The notes under the pieces are model-generated. The model searched no databases. It had not been told where the DNA came from and worked only from the letters and a program-made list of their open reading frames with translations. Below are positions 76 through 20,991 of a stretch of 32,000 bases of DNA, piece after piece. This DNA is from Thermodesulfobacteriota bacterium (GTDB lineage: Bacteria > Desulfobacterota > Desulfarculia > JACQYL01). The stretch's first letter is position 1. Every line of letters starts with the position of its first letter. The stretch lies in NCBI GenBank assembly GCA_963675595.2, contig CAXXLZ010000002.1, forward strand, positions 3,931,900-3,963,899, in the 5' to 3' direction. Position numbers and translations under genes: made by a program.

Positions 76-308
76 GGGGGGATGGAGGAAACCGGCCGCC
101 CCGAGGCATAACCATCGGAATTTCGGTGCGGAGAGGGACCTGAGAGGACCTTTCTTGACACGCATCCAACACAAAGAGAAGATAAGAGGGCCTTGTCGCG
201 GGTCTTTCCCCGCGTTTATGTTGCTAGGATTCTCATGCACCTCCCGGTCTTGAACCGGGCCGCCGGTTAATGCTCGAAAAAGCGGAAGGGATTGTCGGGG
301 AAGGGGTT

Positions 309-2528
309 ATGCGTCGGATTCAGCCACTACGAGTCGTCTTGCTCCTGCTGTGGGTCCTGTTTTTGCAGGCCGTTCCGCTCCCGCCTCCAGCCGGGGCCGT
401 GGAGGAATACGCTTTGGCCACGGGCAAGGCCTGCATTTTCTGCCACGTGGAATCCACCGGGGGCGACCTGAAAACCATGGGTTTCGCCTACATCCGCAAC
501 GGGTACCGCTACCCCGTCCCTGAACGGATTTTCAAGAAGGTGGCGTCGTTCCGGGACCCGGTGCACAAAGCCGTCCGCTTTGGGGTGGGTTACCTCCATT
601 TGCTGGCCGCCGTGGTGTTTTTCGGAGCCATCTTCTATATCCACATCTTCGTGAGGCCGAAACGATTCCGAGGGGGCATTCCCAGGAACGAGAGAATCCT
701 TGGAGTCTCCTGCATGGCGATGTTGGCCGGTACCGGCGCCTACCTCACGTGGTTGCGTATCGAGCGTTGGGAGCAGTTCTTCGACAATACCTTCGGTCTG
801 ATGCTGTTCTGCAAGATCATCCTATTTGTCGTTATGGTCCTGGTGGGACTTACGGCCGCCACCGCGGTGAATCACCTCATGAAGAAAGAGGCGAGGGAAG
901 CGTCCGATTCCCAAAACAAAGCCTCGGGCTCCGATCTTTCCGGTTTCGACGGATTGGAGGGCCGGCCCGCCTATATCGCCTACCAGGGGAAAGTCTACGA
1001 CGTTACCGAGAGCCTCAAGTGGAAGGACGGAAAACATTTCGGCAAGCATGCGGCCGGCGGGGATCTGACCGAAGCCCTGAAAGGAGCGCCTCATGGGCCG
1101 GAGGTCCTCGAACGGATGAAGGCGGTGTCCGGCATGGAGCCGGATACGGCGAAGAAGGTTCCCTCCAGTCCCGCCCATTCCGTTTTCGTCTGGATGGCTT
1201 ATGTCAACCTGATCATCGTATTCCTGATTCTCGCCTGCATCAGTGTGTGGCGTTGGGGGTTTCCCATTCGCTTGGTTCCCGAGCAACGGAAAGCGGCCGT
1301 CGTGGCGGCCGGTTGCATTGCGTGCCACGAGAAAAGAAACCCGGGTTTGGTGAGCGACTGGAGAAACGGGGTGCACGCACGCGTCGGCGTGGACTGCTAC
1401 AAGTGTCACAAGGCAGGGGCGGATTCGAGCGAGTCGGCCAACGGGGCCCATTTCGAGCATGACCCGAATCCCGTTTCCGTGGTGGTCGGTCCGAAGACGT
1501 GCTCAGGATGTCACCCCAAACAGGTTGCGCAGTATGCTTTGAGCAAACACGCGCGTACACGGGAAATCATGTGGAAAGTGGATCCGTGGATCAAGGACGG
1601 AATGAACAACGAGATCGAAAGGATCACGGGTTGCTTTGCCTGCCACGGCACCGAGGTGACCCTTGCCGACGGCAAACCTTTTCCGGGCACCTGGCCCAAC
1701 GTGGGAGTGGGAAGAGAGAATCCGGACGGGACCCGTGGAAGTTGTTCGAGCTGTCACACTCGCCACAGATTCTCCGTGGAGGAGGCGCGCAAGCCCGAGT
1801 CCTGCGGTCAGTGCCACCTCGGCCCGGATCATCCTCAGATCGAGATCTACAACGAATCCAAACACGGCGCCGTCTATCATACGGAGGGTGCGCAATGGAG
1901 TTGGAGAGGAGAGGACGGCCAATGGCTGGCGGGACGTGATTATCGGGCGCCCACGTGCGCCGCATGCCACATGTCGGGTTCCCGGACGGCGGAGGCAAGC
2001 CATGACGTAACCGGTCGACTCTCCTGGGAGCTGCAGACCGCCCTGACCGTGCGGCCTTCCGATTTCGAACCGCTACCCTCATCGGTGGGATGGAAAGACG
2101 CGCGAGCCGCCATGCAGTCCGTGTGTTTTCAGTGTCATTCGAAGACGTGGACCGAGCACCACTTCTCGAATCTGGACGCGGTTGTGGACAACTACGACCG
2201 CAACTACTTCGCCCCGGCCCGCGAGCGAATCGCCCGATTGTATTCTCAAGGGAAGCTTTCCGGAACGTTGTATTTCGACGAACCTCTTGAATGGGATTAC
2301 TACGAACTTTGGCATCATGAGGGGCGCAGGGCCCGCATGGGAGCGGCCATGATGGCCCCGGACTATGCCTGGTGGCACGGCTTTTACGAAGTGAAACATC
2401 GTTTTTTGAATCTCATGAGGCATGCGGACCACATCGGAGATACGGGGGCGGAGACGCGATTTCCGCTCTTTCCGGGGCGACATGAATCGGTGAGGCCCCG
2501 GACTTTGGAGGAGGATTTACCGGAATAG
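309..2528 (+). CDS. membrane-anchored multihaem cytochrome c: N-terminal monohaem c + polytopic membrane module + cytochrome b5-like haem/steroid-binding domain + octahaem HAO (hydroxylamine oxidoreductase)-family domain
   Basis: ORF 270..2528. I prefer the ATG at 309 (MRRIQPLRVVLLLLWVLFLQAV.., signal-peptide-like, purine-rich ggggaagggg just upstream). There are nine CxxCH motifs: CIFCH (aa 55 of the 752-aa ORF), then CIACH, CYKCH, CSGCH, CFACH, CSSCH, CGQCH, CAACH and CFQCH between aa 349 and 623. The C-terminal WHHEGRRARMGAAMMAPDYAWWHGFYE block is typical of the HAO family. AYQGKVYDVTESLKWKDGKHFGKHAAGGDLTEAL matches the cyt-b5-like domain. Four hydrophobic helices lie at about aa 104-128, 143-162, 175-199 and 303-327. 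Confidence 0.85.
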   Translation: MRRIQPLRVVLLLLWVLFLQAVPLPPPAGAVEEYALATGKACIFCHVESTGGDLKTMGFAYIRNGYRYPVPERIFKKVASFRDPVHKAVRFGVGYLHLLAAVVFFGAIFYIHIFVRPKRFRGGIPRNERILGVSCMAMLAGTGAYLTWLRIERWEQFFDNTFGLMLFCKIILFVVMVLVGLTAATAVNHLMKKEAREASDSQNKASGSDLSGFDGLEGRPAYIAYQGKVYDVTESLKWKDGKHFGKHAAGGDLTEALKGAPHGPEVLERMKAVSGMEPDTAKKVPSSPAHSVFVWMAYVNLIIVFLILACISVWRWGFPIRLVPEQRKAAVVAAGCIACHEKRNPGLVSDWRNGVHARVGVDCYKCHKAGADSSESANGAHFEHDPNPVSVVVGPKTCSGCHPKQVAQYALSKHARTREIMWKVDPWIKDGMNNEIERITGCFACHGTEVTLADGKPFPGTWPNVGVGRENPDGTRGSCSSCHTRHRFSVEEARKPESCGQCHLGPDHPQIEIYNESKHGAVYHTEGAQWSWRGEDGQWLAGRDYRAPTCAACHMSGSRTAEASHDVTGRLSWELQTALTVRPSDFEPLPSSVGWKDARAAMQSVCFQCHSKTWTEHHFSNLDAVVDNYDRNYFAPARERIARLYSQGKLSGTLYFDEPLEWDYYELWHHEGRRARMGAAMMAPDYAWWHGFYEVKHRFLNLMRHADHIGDTGAETRFPLFPGRHESVRPRTLEEDLPE

Positions 2529-8728: not shown

Positions 8729-9973
8729 ATGCTGCAAGCCGCGCGAGACGGCGGTCGTCGTGTCGTGATTACCGGAATGGGCGTGGTTTCTTGTCTGGGC
8801 GCGACTCTCGATGAAGTGACCCGAGCTCTTCAGGAAGGCAAATCGGGAATCGCCGTGGTGCCGGAACGCATCGAATTGGGCTTTCGCTCTCCTTTATCCG
8901 GTGTTCTGCCTCCTTTCAGCATCAAGGATCGGCTAAAAAGAAAAGATCGAAAAGGGTTGAGCGAGGCGGCTTCCTACGCAATGGTCGCTGCGCTTGACGG
9001 GCTCGACGGTTTCGGAGACGCGAGCCTGTTGGATAGCGAGAGGGCGGGAATCCTCATCGGCAACGATTCCTCTTCCGATCAATCGATTTATACTTTGGAC
9101 ACGGTACGGACGGAGAAGCGAACCGGCACGTTGGGCGCCGGTCTGGTGCTCAAGTCCATGAACTCGAGTCCGACCATCAACATGACGCCCTTCTTCAAGA
9201 TCAAAGGCCTGAGCCTGACCATCAGTGCGGCTTGTGCCAGCGGAGCACACGCAACGGGCCTGGCGTACATGCTCATCAAGTCGGGATTTCTTGATCTGGC
9301 GCTTGCCGGCGGATGCCAGGAATTGAACTGGCAGTCCATGGCCTCCTTTGACGCCTTGATGACTTTCTCAACCCGTATTTCCGAACCGGAAAAGGCTTCC
9401 CGTCCCTTCGACGCGGATCGGGACGGATTGGTCCCCAGCGGAGGAGGAGCCGCACTCTACGTCGAGGAATTGGAGCACGCTCGTCGGAGGGGAGCGGATA
9501 TCTTGGCTGAAATCGTGGGCTACGGCTTCACCGCGGACGGCACTCATCCGACCAATCCGGACGGCTTCGGGGCGGAGCGCTGCATACGCTTGGCTCTTGA
9601 TCACGCACGGATGGATCCGGAAGAGGTGGATTACATCAATGGTCATGCCACGGGGACTTACGTGGGAGACCGTGCTGAGGCACAGGCCATCCACGCGGTA
9701 TTTAAGAACCACGACACCCCGGTAAGTTCCACGAAATCCATGACGGGTCATGAGTGTTGGATGGCCGGAGCGAGCGAACTGATCTACTGCATCTTGATGA
9801 TGCGACACGGTTTCATGGCTCCCAACATCAACTTTGAAAGACAGGGCCCCGACGAACCCCCCATCCATGTGATTCCTGAAACACGAGAAAAGCAATTGAA
9901 GACTGTTTTATCCAATTCGTTCGGCTTCGGCGGCACCAACGCGTGCGTCGTTTTGCGGAGCTTCGAGGGATGA
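8729..9973 (+). CDS. beta-ketoacyl-[ACP] synthase, KAS I/II (FabB/FabF-like, Cys-His-His type)
   Basis: VVITGMGVVSCLG, active-site ISAACASGAHATG, NGHATGT, STKSMTGHECWMAG and SNSFGFGGTNACVVL motifs. GGGAGGAG RBS at 8717-8724. Confidence 0.9.
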   Translation: MLQAARDGGRRVVITGMGVVSCLGATLDEVTRALQEGKSGIAVVPERIELGFRSPLSGVLPPFSIKDRLKRKDRKGLSEAASYAMVAALDGLDGFGDASLLDSERAGILIGNDSSSDQSIYTLDTVRTEKRTGTLGAGLVLKSMNSSPTINMTPFFKIKGLSLTISAACASGAHATGLAYMLIKSGFLDLALAGGCQELNWQSMASFDALMTFSTRISEPEKASRPFDADRDGLVPSGGGAALYVEELEHARRRGADILAEIVGYGFTADGTHPTNPDGFGAERCIRLALDHARMDPEEVDYINGHATGTYVGDRAEAQAIHAVFKNHDTPVSSTKSMTGHECWMAGASELIYCILMMRHGFMAPNINFERQGPDEPPIHVIPETREKQLKTVLSNSFGFGGTNACVVLRSFEG

Positions 9974-9977
9974 CGGA

Positions 9978-11447
9978 GTGACGGCGGGCCAAGCGGTGAT
10001 CATCGGCGCCGGACTGGGTGGATTGTCCTGCGGCGTGTTGCTGGCGGAAGCCGGTTGGCGGGTGACTCTCCTGGAGCAGTTCCGCAAGCCCGGGGGATAC
10101 ATGGCCCGGTTCCGTCGAGGTGGCGCGGTCTTCGACACCGGATTTCATTTTGTGGGAAGTCTGGGGCCGGGCGAGGCTTCACGGCCCTACTTCGAGGACT
10201 TGGGAATTCTGGAACGCGTGAAGCTCATCCGCTTCCCTTCCGACCGGTTCTTCAGGTACTTGATTCCCGGGTCCTCGCCCCTGGAACTTCCCAACGGATT
10301 GGACGCGGCTTTCGACGTGCTGAATACCCGCTTTCCCGGCAATACCGCAGGCTTGGATTCCTTCAAATCGCAAGTTCGGGAAACCATGGCCACCTTTCCC
10401 TGGTTCAATTTGGAGCCCGTTCCTTCGGAACAGGTTCATCGGCACATGCGTACTCCCCTCAAGACGATGGTCGATCAAGCCACCGAAGATGCCGGACTAA
10501 GACGGGTCCTCATGCTCATGTCCTGGGGAACTTCCTTGCGACCCGAGGTATGTCCTTTTGCTCTGGCGGCCATCCTCAACGGTTCCATGATTGCCGGTGC
10601 GTGGCGGATTTCGGGAGGAGGAGAGGCCCTGACCAAGGCTTTGGTGGATCGTTTTCTTGAACTGGGCGGAATCCTCGAATGTTCCGCCGAAGTGACCGGT
10701 TTCAAAATCAACGGGCTGAGGGCCGAGTCGGTACAAACTTCCGACGGCCGTCAATTCGAGGGAGACCTGTTCATCGCGACGCCTCATCCCAAGACGATCC
10801 TGGAAATCGCGGGACCGGAAGCTTTTCGTCCCACCTTCCGCGAAATGGTTCAAGACTTTGAAGACGCCCCCGGAAGTTTTTGTGTGTTCCTGGAGACGGA
10901 TCGATCCCCGGATTCCCTTTGTCGCACCAATAATTTTTTGTTGGGAGAATCTTGGGAAGACACGATTTACCTGTTATCTCCGTCCGCCGTTGAAGGAGCG
11001 GATAAAGGACACACGCTGCATGCGCTCACCTGGATGGACTTCGACAAAGTGTCTGCGTGGGCCGAGTCGAAGCCGGGGAGCCGCCCCCCGGCGTATCTGG
11101 AATTCAAAGCCCGTCGGACGGAACGGATTCTGTCCCGAGTCAAGGCCTGCTGTCCGGAAATCCGGGAGGGCATTCGGTATGTGGAGGCCTCGACACCACT
11201 GACCAATCAGTATTATACCCGGAGCCATGGTGGGGCGGCCATGGGAGTGAGTCAAGGAGTGCATCAACAGGGCGCTCGGAGAATGAGGCCGAGGAACAAA
11301 CTCCGGAATTTGTTTTTCGCCGGTCAGTCGGTGGGCACGCCGGGAATCATAGGAACGCTGATTACTTCCTATATGCTTTGTGACCAGATCTTAGGCGAAG
11401 GTGTGTTGTGGAACAGATTGCGAAAACGGGCGGGGAAAGCCCCATGA
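9978..11447 (+). CDS. NAD(P)/FAD-dependent oxidoreductase, phytoene desaturase (CrtI/COG1233)-like
   Basis: N-terminal dinucleotide fold VIIGAGLGGLSCGVLLAEAGWRVTLLEQFRKPGG. C-terminal FFAGQSVGTPGIIGT motif typical of the CrtI family. GTG start 4 nt after the KAS stop. Confidence 0.85.
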   Translation: MTAGQAVIIGAGLGGLSCGVLLAEAGWRVTLLEQFRKPGGYMARFRRGGAVFDTGFHFVGSLGPGEASRPYFEDLGILERVKLIRFPSDRFFRYLIPGSSPLELPNGLDAAFDVLNTRFPGNTAGLDSFKSQVRETMATFPWFNLEPVPSEQVHRHMRTPLKTMVDQATEDAGLRRVLMLMSWGTSLRPEVCPFALAAILNGSMIAGAWRISGGGEALTKALVDRFLELGGILECSAEVTGFKINGLRAESVQTSDGRQFEGDLFIATPHPKTILEIAGPEAFRPTFREMVQDFEDAPGSFCVFLETDRSPDSLCRTNNFLLGESWEDTIYLLSPSAVEGADKGHTLHALTWMDFDKVSAWAESKPGSRPPAYLEFKARRTERILSRVKACCPEIREGIRYVEASTPLTNQYYTRSHGGAAMGVSQGVHQQGARRMRPRNKLRNLFFAGQSVGTPGIIGTLITSYMLCDQILGEGVLWNRLRKRAGKAP

Positions 11448-12712
11448 GAATCCACCTCGTCTATCCGGCCTGGCCCAAAATGCCCCACCAAACTCGGTTC
11501 GATCTTCCGCCGCACGGTCCCGTGTGTTTCGCCTCGTCCGTTCCCCCGGGAACCGAGATTGTATTCACCGATGAAAACGTGCAACCGCTGGACTTCGAGA
11601 CTGAATCCGACCTGGTGTGTATTTCCATGATGCTCACGTGTCAGGCTCCTCGGGGATGGGAAATCGCCGATGAATTCCGAAGGAGAGGGCGCACGGTGAT
11701 TGTGGGGGGCATTGCGGCCATGCTTCACGCCGAGGAATGCGCCATGCATGCCGACAGCGTCTTCGTGGGTGAAGCGGAAGGATTTTTTTCACAGACGATC
11801 GATGATTTCAAGAATGGGCGGCTTCGGAGATTCTACCGACCGGAAAGTTTCCCGGACGTGACGGAACTTCCCTTCGCCGATCGAAGCATTTTGGACTATG
11901 ACTGTTACACCTACAAAGGTGTACGCATGGTGGATCTGATTCATGGGAGCCGGGGATGCCGTTTCAACTGCTATCCCTGTTGCGTTCCCATGCTCGGCGG
12001 ACGGAAGTTTCGTCCCAGACCGCCCGCGCGGGTGGCCGCGGAGATCGCTTCCGTGGATAATGATCGCTTTTTTCTGGTCGACAATTCCCTTGCACAAGAC
12101 CGGGATTGGGTGCTTGCCTTGTTCAAGGCCCTCGCGCCCCTCGACATTCACTGGATATCCCATCCGTTGTTCAACACCGATCAGGTGGTGGAAGCCGCGG
12201 CCGCGGCCGGATGCTGGTATGTTTACCAGGCGGTGTACGATATGAGTGAGAAGACCCGAAACCGGATTCGCAGATTGAAGGATCACGGGATCGGTGTTGA
12301 GGGAACCGTGTTGTTGGGACTGGACGACCAGACGGAAGACGACGTTCTTCGCATGGTGGATTTTCTTCTCGAATTGGACCTGGACTTGGCCGAATTCACG
12401 GTCCTCACTCCTTTCCCACATTCGAAGGCCTATGAGGACCTGGAGCGGGAGGGACGGATCCTGCACAAAGATTGGAGTAGGTACACGGCTTCCGAGGTGG
12501 TGTTTCAGCCCAAACACATGACGCCGGGACGATTGCAGGAACTCCACGATTATGCGTGGGAGGCCTTCTATCGCGACGAGAGTCAGCAGCAGCGCATGTT
12601 TCGGCTGTTCATGAAGCTCATGAAGAAACAAGGCCGGTCGGACGCCGGACGGAGACGCGGTAGACGGTGCGCGGCCTCCAACGGAGTCGCGGGAAGCAAC
12701 GGAGAAAGCTGA
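11444..12712 (+). CDS. B12-binding domain radical SAM protein
   Basis: N-terminal Rossmann-like cobalamin-binding-type region (RIHLVYPAW...DLVCISMM...VIVGG). Radical SAM cluster motif GSRGCRFNCYPC (CxxxCxxC, about nt 11957-11980). The ATG at 11444 overlaps the upstream stop (ATGA). Confidence 0.9.
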   Translation: MRIHLVYPAWPKMPHQTRFDLPPHGPVCFASSVPPGTEIVFTDENVQPLDFETESDLVCISMMLTCQAPRGWEIADEFRRRGRTVIVGGIAAMLHAEECAMHADSVFVGEAEGFFSQTIDDFKNGRLRRFYRPESFPDVTELPFADRSILDYDCYTYKGVRMVDLIHGSRGCRFNCYPCCVPMLGGRKFRPRPPARVAAEIASVDNDRFFLVDNSLAQDRDWVLALFKALAPLDIHWISHPLFNTDQVVEAAAAAGCWYVYQAVYDMSEKTRNRIRRLKDHGIGVEGTVLLGLDDQTEDDVLRMVDFLLELDLDLAEFTVLTPFPHSKAYEDLEREGRILHKDWSRYTASEVVFQPKHMTPGRLQELHDYAWEAFYRDESQQQRMFRLFMKLMKKQGRSDAGRRRGRRCAASNGVAGSNGES

Positions 12713-12835
12713 GGAACAAGGCGGAGTTTCACTGGGATGCGGTGTCCAAGGGTGAAATGCGGTCCGTCTTCGGCGGGCGGTTCGTGTTTTTCATGGACCG
12801 GTTGATGTTCCACTCAACCTATTGGGGATGAATTC

Positions 12836-14137
12836 TTGGAAGTGATTACTACGCACACGAGCACGGATTTTGATGCCCTGGCTTCGCTGGTCGCAGCTTC
12901 GATCATCTACCCCGAAGCCGTTGTGGTGTTGCCCAGGAGCCTGAATCCCAACGTTAAAGCGTTCTTGTCCATTCACAAAGACCTTTTCGATCTGGAAACC
13001 GTTCTTGACATCGACCTGGATTGGGTCACCAAGCTGATTGTGGTGGATACCAACCGTTGGGGTCGTTTGGATAAGATGGACGCCCTGGCGTCCAAGGAAG
13101 GACTGGTGGTTCACCTTTGGGATCATCATCCCGAAATCGGCGATATTGTGCCTCACTGGTCCTGCCAGGAACTCACCGGCGCGGCGACGACCCTCCTGGT
13201 GCAGCAGCTGGAGGAGGAAAAGAAGGAGCTGCTGTCTCCCATTTTTGCGACGCTCTTCCTGGCGGGGATCTACGAGGACACGGGAAACCTATCCTTTCCC
13301 TCCACCACGGCGGAGGACGCCCGCGCGGCCGCTTACCTGTTGGATCAGCAAGCGGACCTCAACGTGCTCAACAGCTTCCTGCGCCCAACCTACGGACCCA
13401 AACAGAAAGACATCCTTTTCGAGATGCTCAGGAGCGGCAACCGGACGGTCATTGATGAGCAGCGTATCGGGCTTTCAATGGTGGAAGTAAATGGGCATAC
13501 GCCCGGCCTTTCCCTGGTGGTCCAGATGTATCGGGACATCGTCAACGTGGACGCGGCCTTCGGAATCTTCGTTGACCCGAAAAAAGATTCCTGCATGATC
13601 ATCGCACGCAGCGCATCCGACGCCATCAACGTGGCGACCGTGCTCCGAGGTTTGGGAGGCGGGGGGCATCCCGCCGCCGCCTCGGCGTTTCTGAAATCGG
13701 CCAATCCGGAGGCGGTCCAAGACACGATCCTCGGACTCGTCAGAGGAAACCAGCAGTCCTCGATCCAGATCAGCGACCTCATGTCCTTCCCCGTGGTGAC
13801 CGTCCCCCCCGATATGACGATGACGGACGTGGCCCAGCTGCTCAACGACACCGGGCATTCCGGCGTGCTCGTGGTCGAAGAGGGGCGACTTGCGGGAGTC
13901 ATTTCCAAGAGGGATTTCAACAGGATCAAAAAGAAGTCCGGATGGAGGTCCCCCGTCAAGGCTTTTATGTCCAGAGACGTGCTTACCATCGATCCGGCGG
14001 TGAGCCCCATCAAGGCGGCGCGGATCATGCTCAAGCACGACATCGGGAGGTTGCCCGTGATGGAGGACGGTCATATCATCGGAATTCTTACCCGATCGGA
14101 CCTGATGATCTTCTTTTACGACCTCTTGCCCGATTGA
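12836..14137 (+). CDS. DHH/DHHA1 family phosphoesterase fused to a CBS-domain pair
   Basis: EVITTHTSTDFDALAS (DHH motif I region), VVDTN, WDHH, GIYEDTG and GGGGHPAAASA (DHHA1 GGGH) motifs, followed by two CBS-like repeats (MSFPVVTV...GVLVVEEGRLAGVISKRD; MSRDVLTI...LPVMEDGHIIGILTRSD). TTG start at 12836 as in the ORF track; GTG at 12842 is an alternative. Confidence 0.85.
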   Translation: MEVITTHTSTDFDALASLVAASIIYPEAVVVLPRSLNPNVKAFLSIHKDLFDLETVLDIDLDWVTKLIVVDTNRWGRLDKMDALASKEGLVVHLWDHHPEIGDIVPHWSCQELTGAATTLLVQQLEEEKKELLSPIFATLFLAGIYEDTGNLSFPSTTAEDARAAAYLLDQQADLNVLNSFLRPTYGPKQKDILFEMLRSGNRTVIDEQRIGLSMVEVNGHTPGLSLVVQMYRDIVNVDAAFGIFVDPKKDSCMIIARSASDAINVATVLRGLGGGGHPAAASAFLKSANPEAVQDTILGLVRGNQQSSIQISDLMSFPVVTVPPDMTMTDVAQLLNDTGHSGVLVVEEGRLAGVISKRDFNRIKKKSGWRSPVKAFMSRDVLTIDPAVSPIKAARIMLKHDIGRLPVMEDGHIIGILTRSDLMIFFYDLLPD

Positions 14138-14213
14138 GCCCCGTACGCGGAACCATTCAGGGGGCGCAACCGTTCGGAAAGAGGGGTCCCCATGATGTTC
14201 TTTCCAAGCGCCT

Positions 14214-15743
14214 ATGAACGAACACATGAATAAAGGAAAAATCCGATCCGGCCCCAGCAGGGTGGTGCTGATTCACCCTCGTGGTTTCGGCTATGTCAAA
14301 GGTAAGCCGGACGTCACTCATTTGGCCAACCGCATGCCTCCTTTGGGCTTGCTGAGTATCGCCGCGTACCTGCGTGCCCAGGGCGTCGCCGTCTCTGTGG
14401 TGGATTTGTGTGCGCGGCCGGAGCCCATGGAGAGTCTCCTGCGAAGGCTGGAAACCATGCGTCCGGATTACGTGGGGTTCAGCTGCACCACGGCGAGTTT
14501 CCTGGATGGAACGGTTGTCGCCGAGGCCGTCAAAGACCGTTTGCCCGGCGTAGGGATTGTATTCGGCGGTGTCCATGTGTCGGCGCTAAGAGATGGAATA
14601 CTGGATTCTTTTCCCATTGTCGACTTCGTGGTCGCCGGTGAAGGGGAACAAACCATGCTCGAGCTGGTCCGTGGAGAGGACCCGCGGCATATTCGAGGTT
14701 TGACCCACCGCGACAAAGGGACGAACGGGGAATCGGAGGAAAAGCGGCGTCCTCTGGACCCGGATGCGCTGCCCTTTCCGGCATATGATCTTCTGGAAGG
14801 TTTCCCGAAAGACTACCTGCTTCCCATCTTCAACTATCCTCGCTTCCCCGGAGCCACCCTGGTGACGAGCCGGGGCTGCCCCTACCAGTGCACCTACTGC
14901 GACAGGTCGGTTTACGGCAGGTCTTATCGGTACAACTCGCCTGCATACGTTTACGAACACATGCGCATGCTCCGCAGGCGGTTCGGGGTTCGGCACATCA
15001 ATATTTACGACGATCAATTCACCTTTCATCGCGGCAGAGTCGGAGAGTTTTGCGAGCAGATGGCCCGGCGTCCCTTAGGAGTGACGTTCAATTGCGCCGT
15101 TCACGCCGGTCATGTGGATCCGGAACTCCTGCGTCTTTTGAAAAAGGCCGGCTGCTGGATGGTCAGTCTGGGCATCGAGTCCGGGGATGCCGAGCTGGTG
15201 GCACGCCATAAGCGGAACACGGACCTATCCAAAATTTACCAAACCGTCGGAATGATCAAAAGTGCGGGCCTGCGGGTCAAGGGACTTTTCATGATGGGAT
15301 TGCCGGGGGAGACCGAAGAAAGCATCCGGCGCACCATCCGTTTCATCCTCTCTCTCGACCTCGACGATATGAATATGTCCAAGTTCACACCTTTCCCCGG
15401 TGCTCCCATCTACCGAGATATCCGGGAATACGGGAGTTTCGAGGAGGACTGGAACCTGCTCAATTGCCTGAATTTTACGTTCGTGCCTAAGGGGATTCGG
15501 TCAAAAGAACGCCTGGATGAGCTCTATAGTCTGTTCCTCAAGAGTTGGTACCAGCGGCCCGCCGTTCGCAGCAAGTATGTGCGGATGTTTTGGCAGTCGC
15601 CCCATTCCTGGTGGGTTCTCCTGAGACATCTTCCCGCATTCCTACGTGCTCGAAACGACTGGAACGCCGGGTCCGGGGAGAGAATTCGCATCCGGCCGCC
15701 ACGATCTTCGACATTCCGTAAAGATATGGTAAATCCTTTGTGA
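14214..15743 (+). CDS. B12-binding domain radical SAM protein
   Basis: VVLIHPRG...LGLLSIAAYL...VGFSCTT...IVFGGVH...VVAGEGE (B12-binding-like domain). TSRGCPYQCTYC radical SAM motif (nt 14877-14900). Confidence 0.9.
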   Translation: MNEHMNKGKIRSGPSRVVLIHPRGFGYVKGKPDVTHLANRMPPLGLLSIAAYLRAQGVAVSVVDLCARPEPMESLLRRLETMRPDYVGFSCTTASFLDGTVVAEAVKDRLPGVGIVFGGVHVSALRDGILDSFPIVDFVVAGEGEQTMLELVRGEDPRHIRGLTHRDKGTNGESEEKRRPLDPDALPFPAYDLLEGFPKDYLLPIFNYPRFPGATLVTSRGCPYQCTYCDRSVYGRSYRYNSPAYVYEHMRMLRRRFGVRHINIYDDQFTFHRGRVGEFCEQMARRPLGVTFNCAVHAGHVDPELLRLLKKAGCWMVSLGIESGDAELVARHKRNTDLSKIYQTVGMIKSAGLRVKGLFMMGLPGETEESIRRTIRFILSLDLDDMNMSKFTPFPGAPIYRDIREYGSFEEDWNLLNCLNFTFVPKGIRSKERLDELYSLFLKSWYQRPAVRSKYVRMFWQSPHSWWVLLRHLPAFLRARNDWNAGSGERIRIRPPRSSTFRKDMVNPL

Positions 15744-15770: not shown

Positions 15771-15800
15771 TTGGAATCTTTCGAACCGCTCTGTTAGAAT
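15771..15800 (+). promoter_or_regulatory. weak candidate promoter ahead of the fusion gene
   Basis: TTGGAA (15771-15776), 18-nt spacer, TAGAAT (15795-15800), about 85 nt upstream of the ATG at 15886, which has an AAGGAA RBS. Based on sequence match only. Confidence 0.25.
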
Positions 15801-15885: not shown

Positions 15886-18800
15886 ATGACGGACATCGCT
15901 CGTCCACAAACTCCCTATTATGACGCATCTACCCGCCATACAGTGCGGATTCTCTCGCCTGATTCCACCGAAAGCCGTGTGGAATTGGTGCGGATGGCCG
16001 GAGCTGCCGTGCCCGTTTATGTTCAGCCGGAAACGCCGCTTTGGTTCGTACCGAGCCCCTCTTTGGATCGGATGCTTCTGGACGGCTCGGACCGCCCGCC
16101 GCGGGGAGCGGAGACTCCGGACCGGGTTCTGGACCGATGGGACCTGGAGCGCATATTGACGTCCTGTCGTCGGGAACCCTACTCCGGACCTCGAGTGATG
16201 GAACTGAAGAAGCTGCGTGAGCTTTGGCTGCACGTGACCAATGCCTGCAACCTTCGTTGCGCGCATTGTCTTTTTTCCTGCGGCCCCGGTCCCGCCCCAT
16301 CTCTTCCTCTCGCGCGCATGTCCTCCCTCGTTGAAGAAGCTTACGGGCTGGGTTGCAGGCTGGTGCTGTTTACCGGGGGAGAGCCCCTTTTGGTTGAAGG
16401 CCTGTCGGATTTGTTGGCAACGTCGCAGGCGCGTCCGGATCTCACCTTGGCGGTGCTCACCAACGGTCTTCTGATTCCCTCTTTGTTCCGGAAGATGCGA
16501 TTTCCGGATCCTGAACGGTTGCACTTCCAGGTGAGCCTGGATGGTTCTCGAGACTTTCATGAAGGTCTCAGGGGGAAAGGTTCCTATGATGGGGCGATTC
16601 GGGGCCTGAATCTGCTGATGGAACAGGGATTTCCCTGCAGTATCGCCATGACCGTGACATCGGACAACGTCGGTTCCATGGCTGAGGTGGTGCGCACGTC
16701 ACACGCAATCGGCGTTCGGGCGGTTCACTATCTGTGGTGTTTCCGTCGTGGCAAAGCGGAGGGCCTTGATTTTCCATCCATGGAGTCCTTGATTCGGAAC
16801 TTGAGCTTGGCCGAGTCCGAAGCCCGGCGGCTCGGAGTGGTGATCGACAACATCGAGGCGATGCGCAGCCAGGTTTTCTCTCCGCCCGGCACCAGGTTCG
16901 ATTTGGGCAATGCCGGCTGGGAATCCCTTGCCGTCGGGCCGGACGGCTTTGTCTATCCCACCCCCGCCCTTGTGGGGAGAGAAGCCTTGCGAGCCGGATC
17001 GATCGATGTCGGTCTCGAACGGATATGGAGACACAGCGAATTATTCGAACGAATCCGTCGCTTCTCTCTGTTCGATATTCCTGAAATGGCGGAGGACCCC
17101 TGGCGGTTGATCACCGGTGGAGGGGACTTGGACCACTGCCTTTCACTTGCCGCACAACCGGCCGGTTCCGAATTCAACCCGGGCCCCGATCCCTATGCCC
17201 CCCTGTATCGGGCCATGGCCCGGATGGTGATCGAAGAAGAAACGGCAGGTCTTCCCGCGCCCCCGTCGTCGGGATTGATACTTAAAATGGGCGATGTCAT
17301 GCCGGAATGCCCGCCGGAGCGGGAATTGAATTTCACCCACTGCAACTGCCTGCTTTCCGTCGGAGGAAGCACCACTCACCTGGTTCGAGAATTCTATTCC
17401 GAACGCGCGGCAACCACGGACGCCTCCATCCGGAATCCGGTGCACTATTCCGATGAGGAGGCCGGATTTATTCCGGAAGAAGCTCGTTTGCGGGCCTACG
17501 GATGCGGCAGCCCCGTGGGGGAGGCCGCCCTCGTGGAGGGCGAGACGGTGGTTGATTTGGGGTCCGGCGCAGGCGCCGAATGCTTTGTAGCCGCACGTGC
17601 CGTGGGACCCAGGGGAAGAGTGATCGGTGTGGACATGACAGCGGAGATGCTGGCCCTTGCGCGACAGACGTCGGTGAAGGTAGCCGAACGTCTGGGCTAT
17701 TCGAACGTGGAATTCGTCGAGGGCTTCCTTGAGGATATTCCACTCGAATCGCGAAGTGCCGACGTGGTCGTCTCCAACTGCGTGGTCAACCTGAGCCGGA
17801 ACAAACGACGAGTGTTTCAAGAAATCTTTCGGATATTGAAGCCGGGGGGGAGAATCGTCATCTCCGATGTGGCCACCGAAACGGAGCCACCCTTGGAGGT
17901 CCGGTCGGATCACCGACTCATCGGTGAATGCATCGGCGGGGCTCAGGTTCAGGACTACCTGTTCGGCATGCTGCGGGATACGGGATTCCAAGGAGCAAGG
18001 GCGCTGAAGCGGTTCCCGTATCGTTCCGTGGGAGGCCACGATTTTCATTCTCTGACCTTTGCCGCGTCCAAACCGCCGGCGGCGTCTTCGGCGCCGATGG
18101 ACGTGGTTTACGCCGGTCCGTTTCGGGCCGTTGTCCTGGACGACGGCACCGTGCTGAACCGGGGAGTCCGCCGGACGCTGCGGGCGGCGTGGCAGGGTTC
18201 CCCGGAGGACGCGGCTCGGGCCGGGATATTCTTTCTTGATCAGGATACGGGAGCGATCACCAATGTGGACGCGGTGTGCGACTGCAACTGCGGTTTGCCT
18301 CCGGAACCGGCCGTGGAGGAGGAGACGTCGGACAGGCCCGCCACAGGCTGCCTCGAATGCGGCGCCCCGCTGGTCTATCAATCCGTGCCGGAAGATCGGG
18401 TATGCATCCGTTGCGGCAGGGTCGCTCCCTCCGACGCGATCTGCGAGAACGGTCATTTCATCTGTGATTTCTGTCACGCCAAGGATCCCTCCGAAGTCAT
18501 CGAGCGGGTGTGTCTGCTCAGCATGGAAACCGACATGCTCCGGCTGTTTGAAGAGGTCAGATCACATCGATGTTTTCCCATGCACGGACCGGAACACCAT
18601 GGGCTTGTCCCGGGGGTGATTTTGTCGGCGTTTCGTAACTCGGGAGGCGATCTCACCCGGGAAGCGATCGTCGCGGGCATTCGACGCGGCGCCATGGTTC
18701 CGGGAGGCGCCTGCGCTTTCATGGGGACCTGCGGAGCCGCCACAGGTGTCGGGGTTGCGTTTTCCATGATTCTGGAGGCCACTCCCCTGACTCCGTCGAA

Positions 18801-19077
18801 GCGGCGGGATATCCAATCCCTGGTGGCGGACGTCATCAAAGCGATTGCCGAGCGCAAAGCGGCACGCTGCTGTCGGCGCGAAAGCTATATCGCCTTGAGG
18901 ATTGCGGCGGCTCGATCCAAGGAACTGCTGTCCGTCACACTCAAGGCGGAAGACGACTTCTCGTGTTCTCAGTACGCCGCCAACAGGGAATGTATCGGAT
19001 CCGCCTGTCCGGTGTTTCCCAAAAGAGAAGATGTCTCGTTGAGTCCGATCAAAATCGTGAGGGCGGCGAAAGGCTGA
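15886..19077 (+). CDS. tri-domain fusion: radical SAM with Cys-less SPASM-like extension + ArsM-like class I SAM methyltransferase + Cys-rich C-terminal (DUF5714-like) domain
   Basis: Single uninterrupted 1063-codon ORF. Radical SAM: LHVTNACNLRCAHC (nt 16246-16269) and FTGGEPLL. Methyltransferase: RAYGCGSP, VVDLGSGAGAECF, VVSNCVVNL, ILKPGGRIVISDV, GECIGGA. C-terminus: CLECG..CIRCG, CENGHFICDFCH, HGPEHH, GACAFMGTCGAATG, ARCC. Confidence 0.85.
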   Translation: MTDIARPQTPYYDASTRHTVRILSPDSTESRVELVRMAGAAVPVYVQPETPLWFVPSPSLDRMLLDGSDRPPRGAETPDRVLDRWDLERILTSCRREPYSGPRVMELKKLRELWLHVTNACNLRCAHCLFSCGPGPAPSLPLARMSSLVEEAYGLGCRLVLFTGGEPLLVEGLSDLLATSQARPDLTLAVLTNGLLIPSLFRKMRFPDPERLHFQVSLDGSRDFHEGLRGKGSYDGAIRGLNLLMEQGFPCSIAMTVTSDNVGSMAEVVRTSHAIGVRAVHYLWCFRRGKAEGLDFPSMESLIRNLSLAESEARRLGVVIDNIEAMRSQVFSPPGTRFDLGNAGWESLAVGPDGFVYPTPALVGREALRAGSIDVGLERIWRHSELFERIRRFSLFDIPEMAEDPWRLITGGGDLDHCLSLAAQPAGSEFNPGPDPYAPLYRAMARMVIEEETAGLPAPPSSGLILKMGDVMPECPPERELNFTHCNCLLSVGGSTTHLVREFYSERAATTDASIRNPVHYSDEEAGFIPEEARLRAYGCGSPVGEAALVEGETVVDLGSGAGAECFVAARAVGPRGRVIGVDMTAEMLALARQTSVKVAERLGYSNVEFVEGFLEDIPLESRSADVVVSNCVVNLSRNKRRVFQEIFRILKPGGRIVISDVATETEPPLEVRSDHRLIGECIGGAQVQDYLFGMLRDTGFQGARALKRFPYRSVGGHDFHSLTFAASKPPAASSAPMDVVYAGPFRAVVLDDGTVLNRGVRRTLRAAWQGSPEDAARAGIFFLDQDTGAITNVDAVCDCNCGLPPEPAVEEETSDRPATGCLECGAPLVYQSVPEDRVCIRCGRVAPSDAICENGHFICDFCHAKDPSEVIERVCLLSMETDMLRLFEEVRSHRCFPMHGPEHHGLVPGVILSAFRNSGGDLTREAIVAGIRRGAMVPGGACAFMGTCGAATGVGVAFSMILEATPLTPSKRRDIQSLVADVIKAIAERKAARCCRRESYIALRIAAARSKELLSVTLKAEDDFSCSQYAANRECIGSACPVFPKREDVSLSPIKIVRAAKG

Positions 19078-19226: not shown

Positions 19227-19399
19227 GTCGGCTTCCATAAGCCGACCTATCCGACCTCCGACTGAACAAGGAAGGGGAGAAGGGGCGGGCCGACCTTGAC
19301 AAGGTCCGGTTCGTGATTAGCGAACCTTAGAAGCATCAATAACAAAAGGTCTACAAGACCGTATCCTCAACTTTCGACCGCAGTTTCGGGAGGTGTGAA
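19227..19399 (+). promoter_or_regulatory. structured 5' leader of the mop gene; possible Moco/Tuco-type riboswitch
   Basis: Three perfect hairpins: gtcggctt/ccat/aagccgac (19227-19246), gacctt/gac/aaggtc (about 19292-19306) and ggttcg/tgattag/cgaacc (about 19308-19326). An ACCUCCGA element (about 19254-19261) resembles, from memory, the conserved CCUCCGAG of the Moco RNA motif. The GGGAGG RBS at 19388-19393 could be sequestered. Molbindin genes are typical Moco-riboswitch targets. No covariance model was run. Confidence 0.35.
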
Positions 19400-19609
19400 T
19401 TGAACCTGAGCGCCAGGAATGTATTCAAAGGAAAAGTCGTCGATGTAAAAGAAGGCACGATCATGGCGAAGGTGAAAGTGGACATCGGCAGCGGCAACAT
19501 CATCACTTCCCTCATCAGTTCGGAGGCTGTCAACCAACTCGGAGTCAAGGTGGGGGAAGAAGTTTCCGTGCTGGTCAAGGCCACAAGCGTCATGGTTGCA
19601 AAGGGCTAG
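19400..19609 (+). CDS. mop: molybdenum-pterin/molybdate-binding protein (Mop, single TOBE domain molbindin)
   Basis: 69 aa: NLSARNVFKGKVVDVKEGTIMAKVKVDIGSGNIITSLISSEAVNQLGVKVGEEVSVLVKATSVMVAK matches the TOBE/Mop pattern (SARN..G.V......V.......I.A.IT......L.L..G..V.A..KA..V). TTG start 6 nt after GGGAGG. Confidence 0.85.
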   Translation: MNLSARNVFKGKVVDVKEGTIMAKVKVDIGSGNIITSLISSEAVNQLGVKVGEEVSVLVKATSVMVAKG

Positions 19610-20226
19610 GTCGTCGCCTATCCGAGCCTGCGCCGGCAACGACCGACCGACGCGCATAATCGGTTTGTGCCGATGGGCGTTCATGAGCGCAGGCCTTTCA
19701 AATCGAAATGAGGCAAGGATTGCCTCAGGCAATGAAAAGGCCGTATCCAAGTCGATCATTCTTCCGTAATGCCCCGGGCCCAATGTGCCGGAAGATCGTT
19801 GATCTTTTCGGAAGGCATGTCGACTCGTTCATACGAACCTCCCGGGGAGACTCCCTCTTGCCGGTTATCCCAAACTTTCCGGTCTCCCAAACGCCTACCA
19901 CCTATCCTCCGGTCGATGCATGCCGGAGCCCATCGTTCCCTACCCGATTTTTGCTGAATGTCCTTGTCTGAAGACCTCCGGCTGTTTCGCGTGAGTGTCC
20001 GGATGTCGCTTGATTCAAGGATTGAAAGGCAGTAAGCGTATTCTTATTTCAAACACGACTCAGACCTGTCTTCGCGTTTCTCACGTCGATTCGGCATGCG
20101 GATACGGCGTCTCGATCCGTCCCGATGCGATTGCGCTATGAATTGATCGACAACCCCCTCCGGGCCCCACGGCCGCCGTGTCCGGGAAGTCGTCTGAAAC
20201 GCGGCGTCGGTTGGGAGGTTGTATCG

Positions 20227-20991
20227 ATGAGGTTAATCGAGAATCTTTATCGTCATTTTCATGAAAAGGCTCGGCATACCAGAGTATCACATGTTTCCGT
20301 AGGCCTAAGATATACGGCCGTATTGACCGACGACGGCGGTATGGGACTCGCCTATACCAATTTGAGCTCTTCCGGCTGCTGTGCGACCAAAGGAGCTTAC
20401 CGAGACTACGAAGAACGGCCCGCCGTCGAGTTGTTGGAGCAAATCAAGGATTCCTCACCTTTGCATCGCAGTATGGGGCTGGCACTCGTCAATGCCATGA
20501 ACTACCGGCAGGCCTGTGAACTCCGGGAGGACTCGGGCGACGGCTATTGGATGGATGCGTTCGGTGTCGGGAAAGAAACGCGGGTTGCCATGGTGGGGTT
20601 TTTTCGTCCCCTCATGAAGTTGTTCAAGGAGCGCGGCGCTCTGGTGGAAGTATTGGACGATCAGCAGGGAGTCGGCGATCGGGTTTCCTTCTATGGGAAG
20701 CTGGACGGGTGGGCGGATGTGTTGTTGCTTACCTCGACTTCCATTTTGAACGCGAGCACCGAGGAAGTGCTCGGTCGTCTCGGTCCGGAGGTAAAGGTCG
20801 TCATGCTGGGGCCGAGCACTCCTTTGATCCCCGAAGCTTTCTCTCATCTTCCCGTTCACGTGCTGGCGGGAACCGTTCCCATCGACAAGAACGGCGTGTT
20901 GAAAGCAGTCCGGCATGGAGAAGGAACGCCCGTGATCCATCGATTCAGTCGGAAGGCTTATACCGTTTTGCCGGGGCGAGAGTTTCATTGA
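20227..20991 (+). CDS. DUF4213/DUF364-type protein (putative heavy-metal chelation / Rossmann-like domain)
   Basis: About 254 aa from the ATG at 20227 (GGGAGG RBS at 20213-20218). N-terminus V.HVSVGLRYTAVLTDDGGMGLAYT, then VAMVGFFRPL....VEVLD...........LLLTSTSILN, as I recall for DUF4213+DUF364 proteins. The family assignment is from memory of the motif pattern. Confidence 0.65.
   Translation: MRLIENLYRHFHEKARHTRVSHVSVGLRYTAVLTDDGGMGLAYTNLSSSGCCATKGAYRDYEERPAVELLEQIKDSSPLHRSMGLALVNAMNYRQACELREDSGDGYWMDAFGVGKETRVAMVGFFRPLMKLFKERGALVEVLDDQQGVGDRVSFYGKLDGWADVLLLTSTSILNASTEEVLGRLGPEVKVVMLGPSTPLIPEAFSHLPVHVLAGTVPIDKNGVLKAVRHGEGTPVIHRFSRKAYTVLPGREFH

Follow-up and report, generated by a model that had tools for sequence, protein, structure and literature searches.

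Only two routes by which radical S-adenosylmethionine (SAM) enzymes form carbon-arsenic bonds are on record: that of ArsS, in the biosynthesis of arsenosugars, and that of ArsL, in the biosynthesis of arsinothricin. ArsS (TIGR04167) adenosylates dimethylarsenite (DMAs(III)), and bacterial arsenosugar production has been reported only for cyanobacteria. ArsL transfers a 3-amino-3-carboxypropyl group and, together with the arsenite methyltransferase ArsM, likewise provides a two-step route to a carbon-arsenic compound. Here, we analysed a 32,000-nucleotide stretch of DNA from a Thermodesulfobacteriota bacterium (contig CAXXLZ010000002.1; the whole stretch is called the window below), in which a single gene (15886..19077, forward strand) encodes a 1063-amino-acid (aa) fusion of a radical SAM enzyme, an ArsM-type methyltransferase and a DUF5714 domain. 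We estimate a probability of about 0.5 that this fusion belongs to a large family of enzymes that form organoarsenicals on their own. Its likely products, in anaerobic bacteria, are carbon-arsenic compounds, and the protein is best classed as a variation on the known theme of ArsM plus a radical SAM enzyme.

Architecture and authenticity of the fusion

The initial annotation of the window described a 1063-codon open reading frame (ORF) in four parts, and this architecture was borne out by Pfam matches to Radical_SAM (aa 117-262, 3e-18), Methyltransf_31 (aa 551-689, 1e-32) and DUF5714 (aa 872-1043, 7.5e-56). The gene and its parts, in window coordinates, are as follows:

15886..19077, + strand: whole gene of the 1063-aa radical SAM-ArsM-DUF5714 fusion, an ORF with an ATG start
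15886..16215, + strand: N-terminal domain (aa 1-110), modelled as four strands followed by two helices; the PxWFVP motif is conserved and W53 invariant
16216..16875, + strand: radical SAM core (aa 111-330), Pfam Radical_SAM 3e-18
16876..17295, + strand: SPASM-like region (aa 331-470) without auxiliary-cluster cysteines, from fold alignments to CteB, anSME and PqqE
17296..17460, + strand: junction and N-terminal segment of ArsM (aa 471-525; D-C-P...T-H-C-N-C), in which C475 and C488 are invariant and H485 nearly so
17461..18075, + strand: ArsM-type class I SAM methyltransferase (aa 526-730), in which C540 (YGCGSP), C632 (SNCVxNL) and C682 (GECIGGA) are invariant
18076..18276, + strand: ArsM C-terminal beta domain (aa 731-797), from the NF040538 ArsM model and Foldseek alignments
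18277..18333, + strand: flexible linker (aa 798-816), with a predicted local distance difference test score (pLDDT) below 50 and conserved C800 and C802
18334..19077, + strand: Cys-rich region and helical DUF5714 core, including the stop codon (DUF5714, 7.5e-56)

All the motifs quoted in the initial annotation were found in the translation: CNLRCAHC (aa 121-128), GGEPLL (164-169), YGCGSP (538-543), GECIGGA (680-686) and HGPEHH (900-905), together with VVDLGSGAGAECF, ILKPGGRIVISDV, CENGHFICDFCH (aa 853-864) and GACAFMGTCGAATG (aa 941-954). The first 110 aa or so, which had been reported to carry no recognisable motif, matched no family in Pfam or NCBIfam.

A search of 5.8 billion proteins yielded 120 or more cluster representatives sharing this set of Pfam domains, displaying 42-54% identity to the fusion over about 95% coverage; the named sources included Desulfoluna, Thiovibrio, Desulfomonilaceae, Desulfobulbaceae and Planctomycetota. 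Relatives are encoded in at least 587 species-representative genomes, and carriers in culture include Desulfoluna butyratoxydans, D. spongiiphila, Sulfurospirillum arcachonense, Hydrosulfovibrio ferrireducens and Desulfurivibrio dismutans. The homologues are annotated in databases as “DUF5714 domain-containing protein” or “radical SAM protein”, and a literature search retrieved no paper mentioning DUF5714 or the fusion. The architecture is common rather than rare, and is not that of a family already characterised.

A chimeric ORF, a concern raised from the outset, was ruled out, whether through misassembly or a frameshift. In total, 115 full-length homologues from independent assemblies were collinear over both junctions, each of which was flanked by invariant residues. 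A query restricted to the junction (aa 330-560) retrieved 149 representatives among 1.84 billion, 33 of them with E≤1e-30, and the position was always equivalent. The junctions are therefore genuine, as is the protein. The AlphaFold2 model built from the alignment of homologues had a mean pLDDT of 89.6 and a predicted template modelling score (pTM) of 0.76, with disorder only at the termini and in the linker.

The search for split versions of the fusion yielded artefacts only. At locus L082 (3768-6897), on a long-read metagenome contig, the fusion was called as three genes directly following DUF2064 and glycosyltransferase family 2 (GT2) genes; tblastn placed its parts in frames 3/2/3/1, indicating a gene broken by frameshifts rather than a true split, and the breakage is probably due to sequencing error or to the presence of a pseudogene. 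A second candidate (P0189), combining the methyltransferase with DUF5714, was truncated by the end of its contig, and the many short matches to DUF5714 only came from contigs of 1-3 kb.

Methyltransferase and radical SAM domains

On the basis of sequence and model, the methyltransferase domain is assigned to the ArsM/AS3MT lineage and not to that of UbiE, in agreement with the initial annotation. The PRK11873 arsenite methyltransferase model of NCBIfam scored 231.9 bits, versus about 60 for UbiE, and positions 168-343 of the ArsM model NF040538 aligned with aa 621-788; the scores of the other NCBIfam ArsM models fell far below their cut-offs. The five best sequence matches in the PDB were all ArsM/AS3MT proteins (CrArsM, human AS3MT and CmArsM; 3e-36 to 1e-30), and the YGCG, SNCVxNL and GECxGGA motifs aligned residue for residue with 5evj and 8xt7. 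Likewise, the 13 best Foldseek matches in the PDB were all ArsM/AS3MT, over 260-300 columns that included the C-terminal domain. The three cysteines of these motifs, C540, C632 and C682, were invariant in 115 of the 115 homologues. Residues 526-797 therefore resemble ArsM/AS3MT (CmArsM, 4fr0/4fsd; CrArsM, 5evj; human AS3MT, 8xt7) in both fold and sequence, retaining the YGCG, SNCV and GEC(I/L)GGA cysteines and the C-terminal beta domain. The fusion differs from these enzymes in that the domain is embedded in 1063 aa and DUF5714 takes the place of the Cys-rich tail at the C-terminus.

The radical SAM half has the features typical of the superfamily, with a CxxxCxxC cluster motif (C121-x3-C125-x2-C128, nt 16246-16269), a GGE motif (aa 164-166) and a core fold matching those of SkfB, CteB and anSME. 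C121, C125, C128 and the segment T163-P167 were invariant across the 115 sequences. The nearest named families were the Rv1681 family, ScmF, StsB, MftC and AhbD, and the relatives in the PDB were SkfB, BlsE and CteB. The fold of aa ~1-470 is similar to that of SPASM/twitch maturases (CteB, 5why; SkfB, 6efn; anSME, 4k36; PqqE, 6c8v; BlsE, 7vob), with target-normalised TM values of 0.57-0.72, the highest being that for CteB (0.72). The SPASM-like extension described in the initial annotation was upheld as a fold, which aligned with those of CteB, anSME and PqqE, but not as a site for auxiliary clusters. The SPASM hidden Markov model scored below threshold (15-19 bits versus a cut-off of 21.5) and the seven-cysteine motif of the maturases, which would bind one or two auxiliary [4Fe-4S] clusters, was absent, although the fold was retained. 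Conservation counts for the 115 sequences revealed no conserved cysteine in aa 331-470; within aa 285-500, only C475 and C488 were invariant, with C486 kept in 63% and C418 in 47% of sequences.

Given the similarity to maturases, the fusion might be a maturase acting, in the manner of the enzymes for ribosomally synthesized and post-translationally modified peptides (RiPPs), on a peptide or on its own DUF5714 domain. The best fold matches for the N-terminal half are indeed sactisynthases and peptide maturases, and the alignments are long enough to take in a recognition-like domain at the N-terminus: because the Foldseek alignment to the sactisynthase CteB spans 461 columns, the N-terminal domain of the model probably overlaps the N-terminal peptide-binding domain of CteB. 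We nevertheless consider a maturase function very improbable, as there was no conserved small precursor gene, RiPP partner or other peptide substrate gene in 80 loci centred on the fusion, the auxiliary-cluster cysteines are missing and the methyltransferase is specifically ArsM-like.

The lack of auxiliary-cluster cysteines is a feature shared with ArsS. In ArsS chemistry, no auxiliary cluster is needed, because an As-centred radical returns an electron to the radical SAM cluster (PMC13598754). ArsS and the fusion both lack canonical auxiliary clusters, as this chemistry would predict, and the cysteine-less SPASM region of the fusion is consistent with it. The fusion is about three times longer than ArsS, has an ArsM domain of its own and differs in its C-terminal region. 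ArsL, unlike the fusion, is encoded separately from its methyltransferase; the NCBIfam model for ArsL was not among the top matches listed for the fusion, and no arsQ-like context was seen.

The segment joining the two catalytic domains was found, in the junction-specific search, only in the fusion family. Its residues C475, H485 and C488 may form a ligand site for a metalloid or a cluster. Alternatively, the two cysteines, which lie upstream from the methyltransferase motifs and are invariant, could stand in for the apparently missing N-terminal cysteine of ArsM.

Genomic context across the family and in the window

ORFs were called and clustered in the 80 fusion-centred loci. No neighbour was universal. 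Genes for TIGR04282 and/or TIGR04283, both of which bear the NCBIfam name “arsenosugar biosynthesis glycosyltransferase”, were present in 20 of the 80 loci with scores above the NCBIfam cut-offs, mostly adjacent to the fusion and co-oriented with it; these loci span Desulfobacterota, Planctomycetota, Campylobacterota and Bacteroidota. Beyond these 20 loci, the association was also found at L082, L128 and L166/L167. The most frequent families among the operon-like neighbours (n=150) were VTT/DedA (16), DUF2064 (12), GT2 (12), Pyr_redox_2 (7), Fpg (7) and DUF3047 (5). ArsR, ArsC, Acr3 and ArsB were outside the 25 most frequent families of these neighbours, and no ars operon context was seen.

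In the reciprocal test, metagenome contigs were scanned with a narrowed TIGR04283 alignment, a first alignment having proved too diverse. At 13 TIGR04283-centred loci, the adjacent genes included a candidate ArsS (a radical SAM protein about 320 aa in length), and all 10 of the candidates tested matched TIGR04167, at 355-417 bits (cut-off 300). One TIGR04283-centred locus (L128) was observed to hold the fusion in place of ArsS. The two enzymes were never found together in the sampled TIGR04283-centred loci, and none of the 20 fusion loci with TIGR04282 and/or TIGR04283 genes contained ArsS. ArsS and the fusion are thus radical SAM enzymes with the same genomic partners that are mutually exclusive in the sampled cassettes, which have in common TIGR04282, TIGR04283, DedA, a MerA-like reductase, Fe-S/CCG, DUF3047, FA_hydroxylase, DUF547 and LysR. 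Shared accessory genes, mutual exclusion and an identity of only 25% over 141 core residues are what would be seen if the fusion had replaced ArsS as a non-orthologous enzyme. The link between ArsM, radical SAM enzymes and organoarsenicals suggested in the initial annotation is strengthened by the occurrence of the fusion in ArsS cassettes beside TIGR04282 and TIGR04283.

Other cassette genes point to the type of intermediate. In loci L069, L070, L072, L075 and L077, from Sulfurospirillum and related Campylobacterota, a methylthioribose (MTR)-kinase paralogue, which fell short of the TIGR01767 cut-off (229.9 bits versus 275), invariably occurs together with a fused TIGR04282+TIGR04283 gene. 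A rhodanese/DedA/Fe-S-CCG set lies between the kinase paralogue and the fusion at L069, L072, L075 and L077, but not at L070. A GalT/HIT-like sugar-1-phosphate nucleotidyltransferase is encoded at L032, and an aquaglyceroporin occurs, with CobW, at L030. The kinase paralogue, the GalT-like enzyme and the aquaglyceroporin would fit a 5-substituted 5-deoxyribose intermediate and the uptake of arsenite.

The pathway may be the same but the radical step different: the radical SAM domain could transfer another SAM fragment, as ArsL does, join arsenic to a carbon atom of a lipid or sugar, or modify the sugar, in each case giving a new organoarsenical. Such a step would be consistent with the placement of the domain in the SPASM/twitch maturase clade, with its CteB-like fold, rather than in the ArsS clade, with the invariant C475, H485 and C488, which have no counterpart in ArsS, and with the presence of FA_hydroxylase, patatin and DedA in the cassettes, which hints at lipid chemistry. 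However, the cassettes are otherwise identical where the fusion takes the place of ArsS, the two enzymes were never found together, and the genes resembling MTR kinase and sugar-1-phosphate nucleotidyltransferase point to a 5-deoxyribose intermediate, which would require adenosylation. A different radical step is, on this evidence, unlikely, though far from negligible.

The copy of the fusion in the window stands alone, with no cassette gene detected by tblastn in the 32 kb. Its own upstream region contains one candidate signal:

15771..15800, + strand: promoter-like site (TTGGAA-18 nt-TAGAAT, TG-extended), from a consensus scan only, 86 nt upstream of the ATG

The gap between the fusion gene and the upstream B12-radical SAM gene is 142 bp, and the promoter-like site is weak evidence fitting independent transcription of the fusion gene. 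No riboswitch or other RNA element in the window was matched in Rfam.

The genes upstream (8729-15743, + strand) form a co-oriented run encoding a beta-ketoacyl-acyl carrier protein synthase, a CrtI-family flavin oxidase, a degenerate B12-radical SAM protein, a DHH-DHHA1-CBS protein and an HpnJ/BchE-like B12-radical SAM protein. The run has weak matches to TIGR04072, the “lipid biosynthesis B12-binding/radical SAM” (ladderane-type) model, and looks like an unusual lipid-modification cluster. The B12-radical SAM gene directly upstream of the fusion is unrelated to it and matches the ArsL model weakly (45.5 bits). In the 1-kb gap after the fusion, 19400-19609 (+) encodes a 69-aa molybdate/tungstate-binding TOBE protein of the Mop/ModG type (PDB 1h9j, 3.5e-20; 1gug, 2.9e-15). 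It overlaps a 138-aa ORF on the minus strand (19367-19783), which matched no family and is probably not a real gene. The next gene (20125-20991, +) encodes a DUF4213/DUF364 “putative heavy-metal chelation” protein (PDB 3npg, 3.6e-7). Elsewhere in the window, 270-2528 (+) encodes a 752-aa protein with an unusual mix of CopD-like, cytochrome b5-like and multihaem cytochrome c (CxxCH) domains.

The initial annotation had drawn on the position of the fusion next to a lipid-type cluster. This argument fails, because neither the upstream synthase, CrtI-like and two B12-radical SAM genes nor the downstream DUF364 gene recurred beside the fusion in any of the 80 loci; nor did the DHH-CBS or Mop-type genes recur beside it elsewhere. 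Neither side is a conserved partner of the fusion.

DUF5714, variant architectures and the proposed pathway

The last 230 aa of the fusion correspond to a full-length DUF5714 (PF18978), as initially recognised, with a score of 188.8 bits (gathering score 26.2) over positions 1-172 of the 173 of the profile. In the 115 sequences, 14 cysteines and four to five histidines in this region were invariant or nearly so. A zinc-ribbon-like hairpin (C822, C825, C840 and C843) is followed by a second Cys/His site (C853, H857, C860, C863 and H864) and by the helical core, with its HGPEHH, GGxCxFxGxCGAA and RCC motifs, C1036 and C1041. In the linker before this region, the length of the insertion varies among homologues; C800 is kept in 99% of sequences and C802 in 83%. 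The domain was modelled with a pLDDT of 91.5, and Foldseek detected no fold relative in the PDB (best E = 1.1). The “metal-binding double selenoprotein” model for MbdU (NF045648) matched at 125-132 bits over positions 31-272 of 468 (cut-off 600), and C_GCAxxG_C_C (PF09719) also matched below its cut-off; DUF5714 is distantly related to C_GCAxxG_C_C and to the predicted selenoprotein MbdU. The fusion contains no in-frame TGA, and has cysteines at the C-C pair C995/C996.

DUF5714 also exists as a stand-alone protein of about 230-300 aa (L081 and L083). At L083 (4582-7832), in a metagenome-assembled genome of Oscillospiraceae, the gene order is radical SAM (329 aa), ArsR-type helix-turn-helix protein, stand-alone DUF5714 and CobW GTPase, with a TOBE protein and a heavy-metal P-type ATPase in the vicinity. 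This setting suggests a metal-related role for DUF5714 independent of ArsM. The C-terminus of an ArsS protein (L147, 388-1353; ...RHCFGCTAGFGSSCGGA...) loosely resembles the DUF5714 motif GGACAFMGTCGAATG (aa 941-954 of the window protein); the spacing is unequal and the likeness may be due to chance.

With these selenoprotein relatives in mind, the physiological substrate might be another soft metalloid or chalcogen (Se, Te or Sb), in a selenosugar-type pathway, for example. Thiol/selenol-redox proteins abound in the cassettes (rhodanese, MerA-like, Fe-S/CCG “near-Sec” and thioredoxins), and a gene for an EgtD-like methyltransferase follows the fusion at L040. However, the closest characterised relatives of the methyltransferase are all arsenite methyltransferases, the As(III)-binding cysteines are kept, ArsS, which the fusion replaces, acts on DMAs(III), and an aquaglyceroporin and a PHO4 transporter are found as neighbours. 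A substrate other than arsenic is therefore rather improbable.

The junction search revealed three forms of the protein: proteins of about 1000-1080 aa with DUF5714, proteins of about 780-850 aa with a Cys-rich tail, and P0253, fused to a glycosyltransferase. The tails of the two-domain forms (...CDPSTGCC and ...NCCGPSCC) are of the ArsM type that is absent from the DUF5714 fusion. One such protein, P0292, is complete at 843 aa (L166, 8001-10532; L167, 5611-8142; tail ...SCDPSTGCC), and its gene lies between patatin and PHO4-DUF2064-GT2 genes, with Pyr_redox_2 and Fe-S/CCG genes upstream. Genes for thioredoxins and an HMA protein are also present in its surroundings. In P0253 (L165, 7183-10026), the radical SAM-ArsM pair runs, within one ORF, into a TIGR04283-type glycosyltransferase that replaces DUF5714 (Pfam Glycos_transf_2; 45% identity to the TIGR04283 type, 9.5e-35); the gene ends at the contig end and was found in two samples. 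This fusion provides Rosetta-stone support for a role in organoarsenical formation. Because the pairing persists over three architectures while the third module varies, the conserved core consists of radical SAM-ArsM, to which interchangeable third modules are attached, and this would favour a metalloid-binding or relay role for DUF5714.

The persistence of the pairing also bears on whether the fusion could be a detoxifying ArsM that only methylates, with the radical SAM and DUF5714 domains supplying electrons, exerting regulation or serving an unrelated co-regulated function. Most loci, this window included, are stand-alone and have no pathway genes, as might be expected of such an enzyme, and fusions of ArsM to Cys/Sec-rich redox domains recur in annotation (ArsM/AhpD and ArsM/DUF2284 selenoproteins). 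However, the catalytic motifs of the radical SAM domain are invariant in the 115 sequences, the pair is maintained whatever the third module, no ars operon context was found and the fusion substitutes specifically for ArsS. We judge methylation alone to be distinctly improbable.

For a self-contained organoarsenical-forming enzyme, we infer the substrate and the order of the steps to be as follows. The conserved cysteines of ArsM (C632 and C682, together with C540) would bind As(III), which the ArsM domain would methylate with SAM, probably up to dimethylarsenite. The radical SAM domain would then cleave another SAM reductively at the [4Fe-4S] cluster held by C121, C125 and C128, and the SAM-derived radical would form a further carbon-arsenic bond. 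By analogy with ArsS acting on dimethylarsenite, the likeliest radical step is 5'-deoxyadenosylation, yielding 5'-deoxy-5'-dimethylarsinoyl-adenosine; the use of another radical is less likely. The tethered Cys/His-rich DUF5714 would probably capture or relay the metalloid, or supply thiol redox equivalents. In genomes bearing the cassette, the product would be processed to an arsenosugar-type conjugate by the TIGR04282 nucleotidyltransferase-like protein and the TIGR04283 GT2, sometimes with the MTR-kinase paralogue or the GalT-like enzyme.

Several observations weigh against this proposal. From its sequence, the radical SAM domain is not a member of the ArsS family: identity to a true ArsS (TIGR04167, 416.9 bits) is 25% and extends over 141 core aa only, TIGR04167 was outside the 25 best-scoring NCBIfam families listed for queries aa 1-500 and aa 285-500, and the fusion lacks the DUF3641-like C-terminus of ArsS. 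The enzymes closest to the domain act in the maturation of peptides or cofactors. On the ArsM side, the match falls short of the NCBIfam cut-off (231.9 versus 263, NF008823). The position of the N-terminal catalytic cysteine of ArsM (Cys44 in CmArsM) appears, from the register of the FY...NPV motif, to be occupied by N-P rather than cysteine, the HMMER alignments beginning past this position. The names of TIGR04282 and TIGR04283 derive from co-occurrence with ArsS rather than from experiment. Finally, 60 of the 80 loci (75%), including the window, have no accessory genes within 10 kb, and ars resistance or regulator genes are not enriched beside the fusion.

A stronger form of the proposal, in which the radical SAM-ArsM core is an evolutionarily independent route to carbon-arsenic bonds, is possible, though somewhat less likely than not. 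A SPASM-derived enzyme other than ArsS would, within one polypeptide and with three SAM, convert inorganic arsenite into an adenosyl- or alkyl-dimethylarsenical, and DUF5714 would be a new metalloid-handling fold. The core would then be a previously unrecognised source of arsenosugar-type or new organoarsenic compounds in anaerobes, the organisms concerned being sulfate reducers, Geobacter relatives, Sulfurospirillum, anammox-related Planctomycetota and further anaerobes among the carriers in the species genomes counted above.

If the fusion does form organoarsenicals, it would represent a third, non-orthologous radical SAM solution, covalently joined to the methyltransferase that makes its substrate, such that a single protein would perform polar and then radical SAM chemistry on a single metalloid atom. 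It would also provide the first functional context for DUF5714 and for the widely annotated TIGR04282/TIGR04283 cassette. As the gene is carried by several hundred species of anaerobes living in sediments, aquifers and bioreactors, confirmation would mean a revised list of the organisms that produce complex organoarsenicals where oxygen is lacking.

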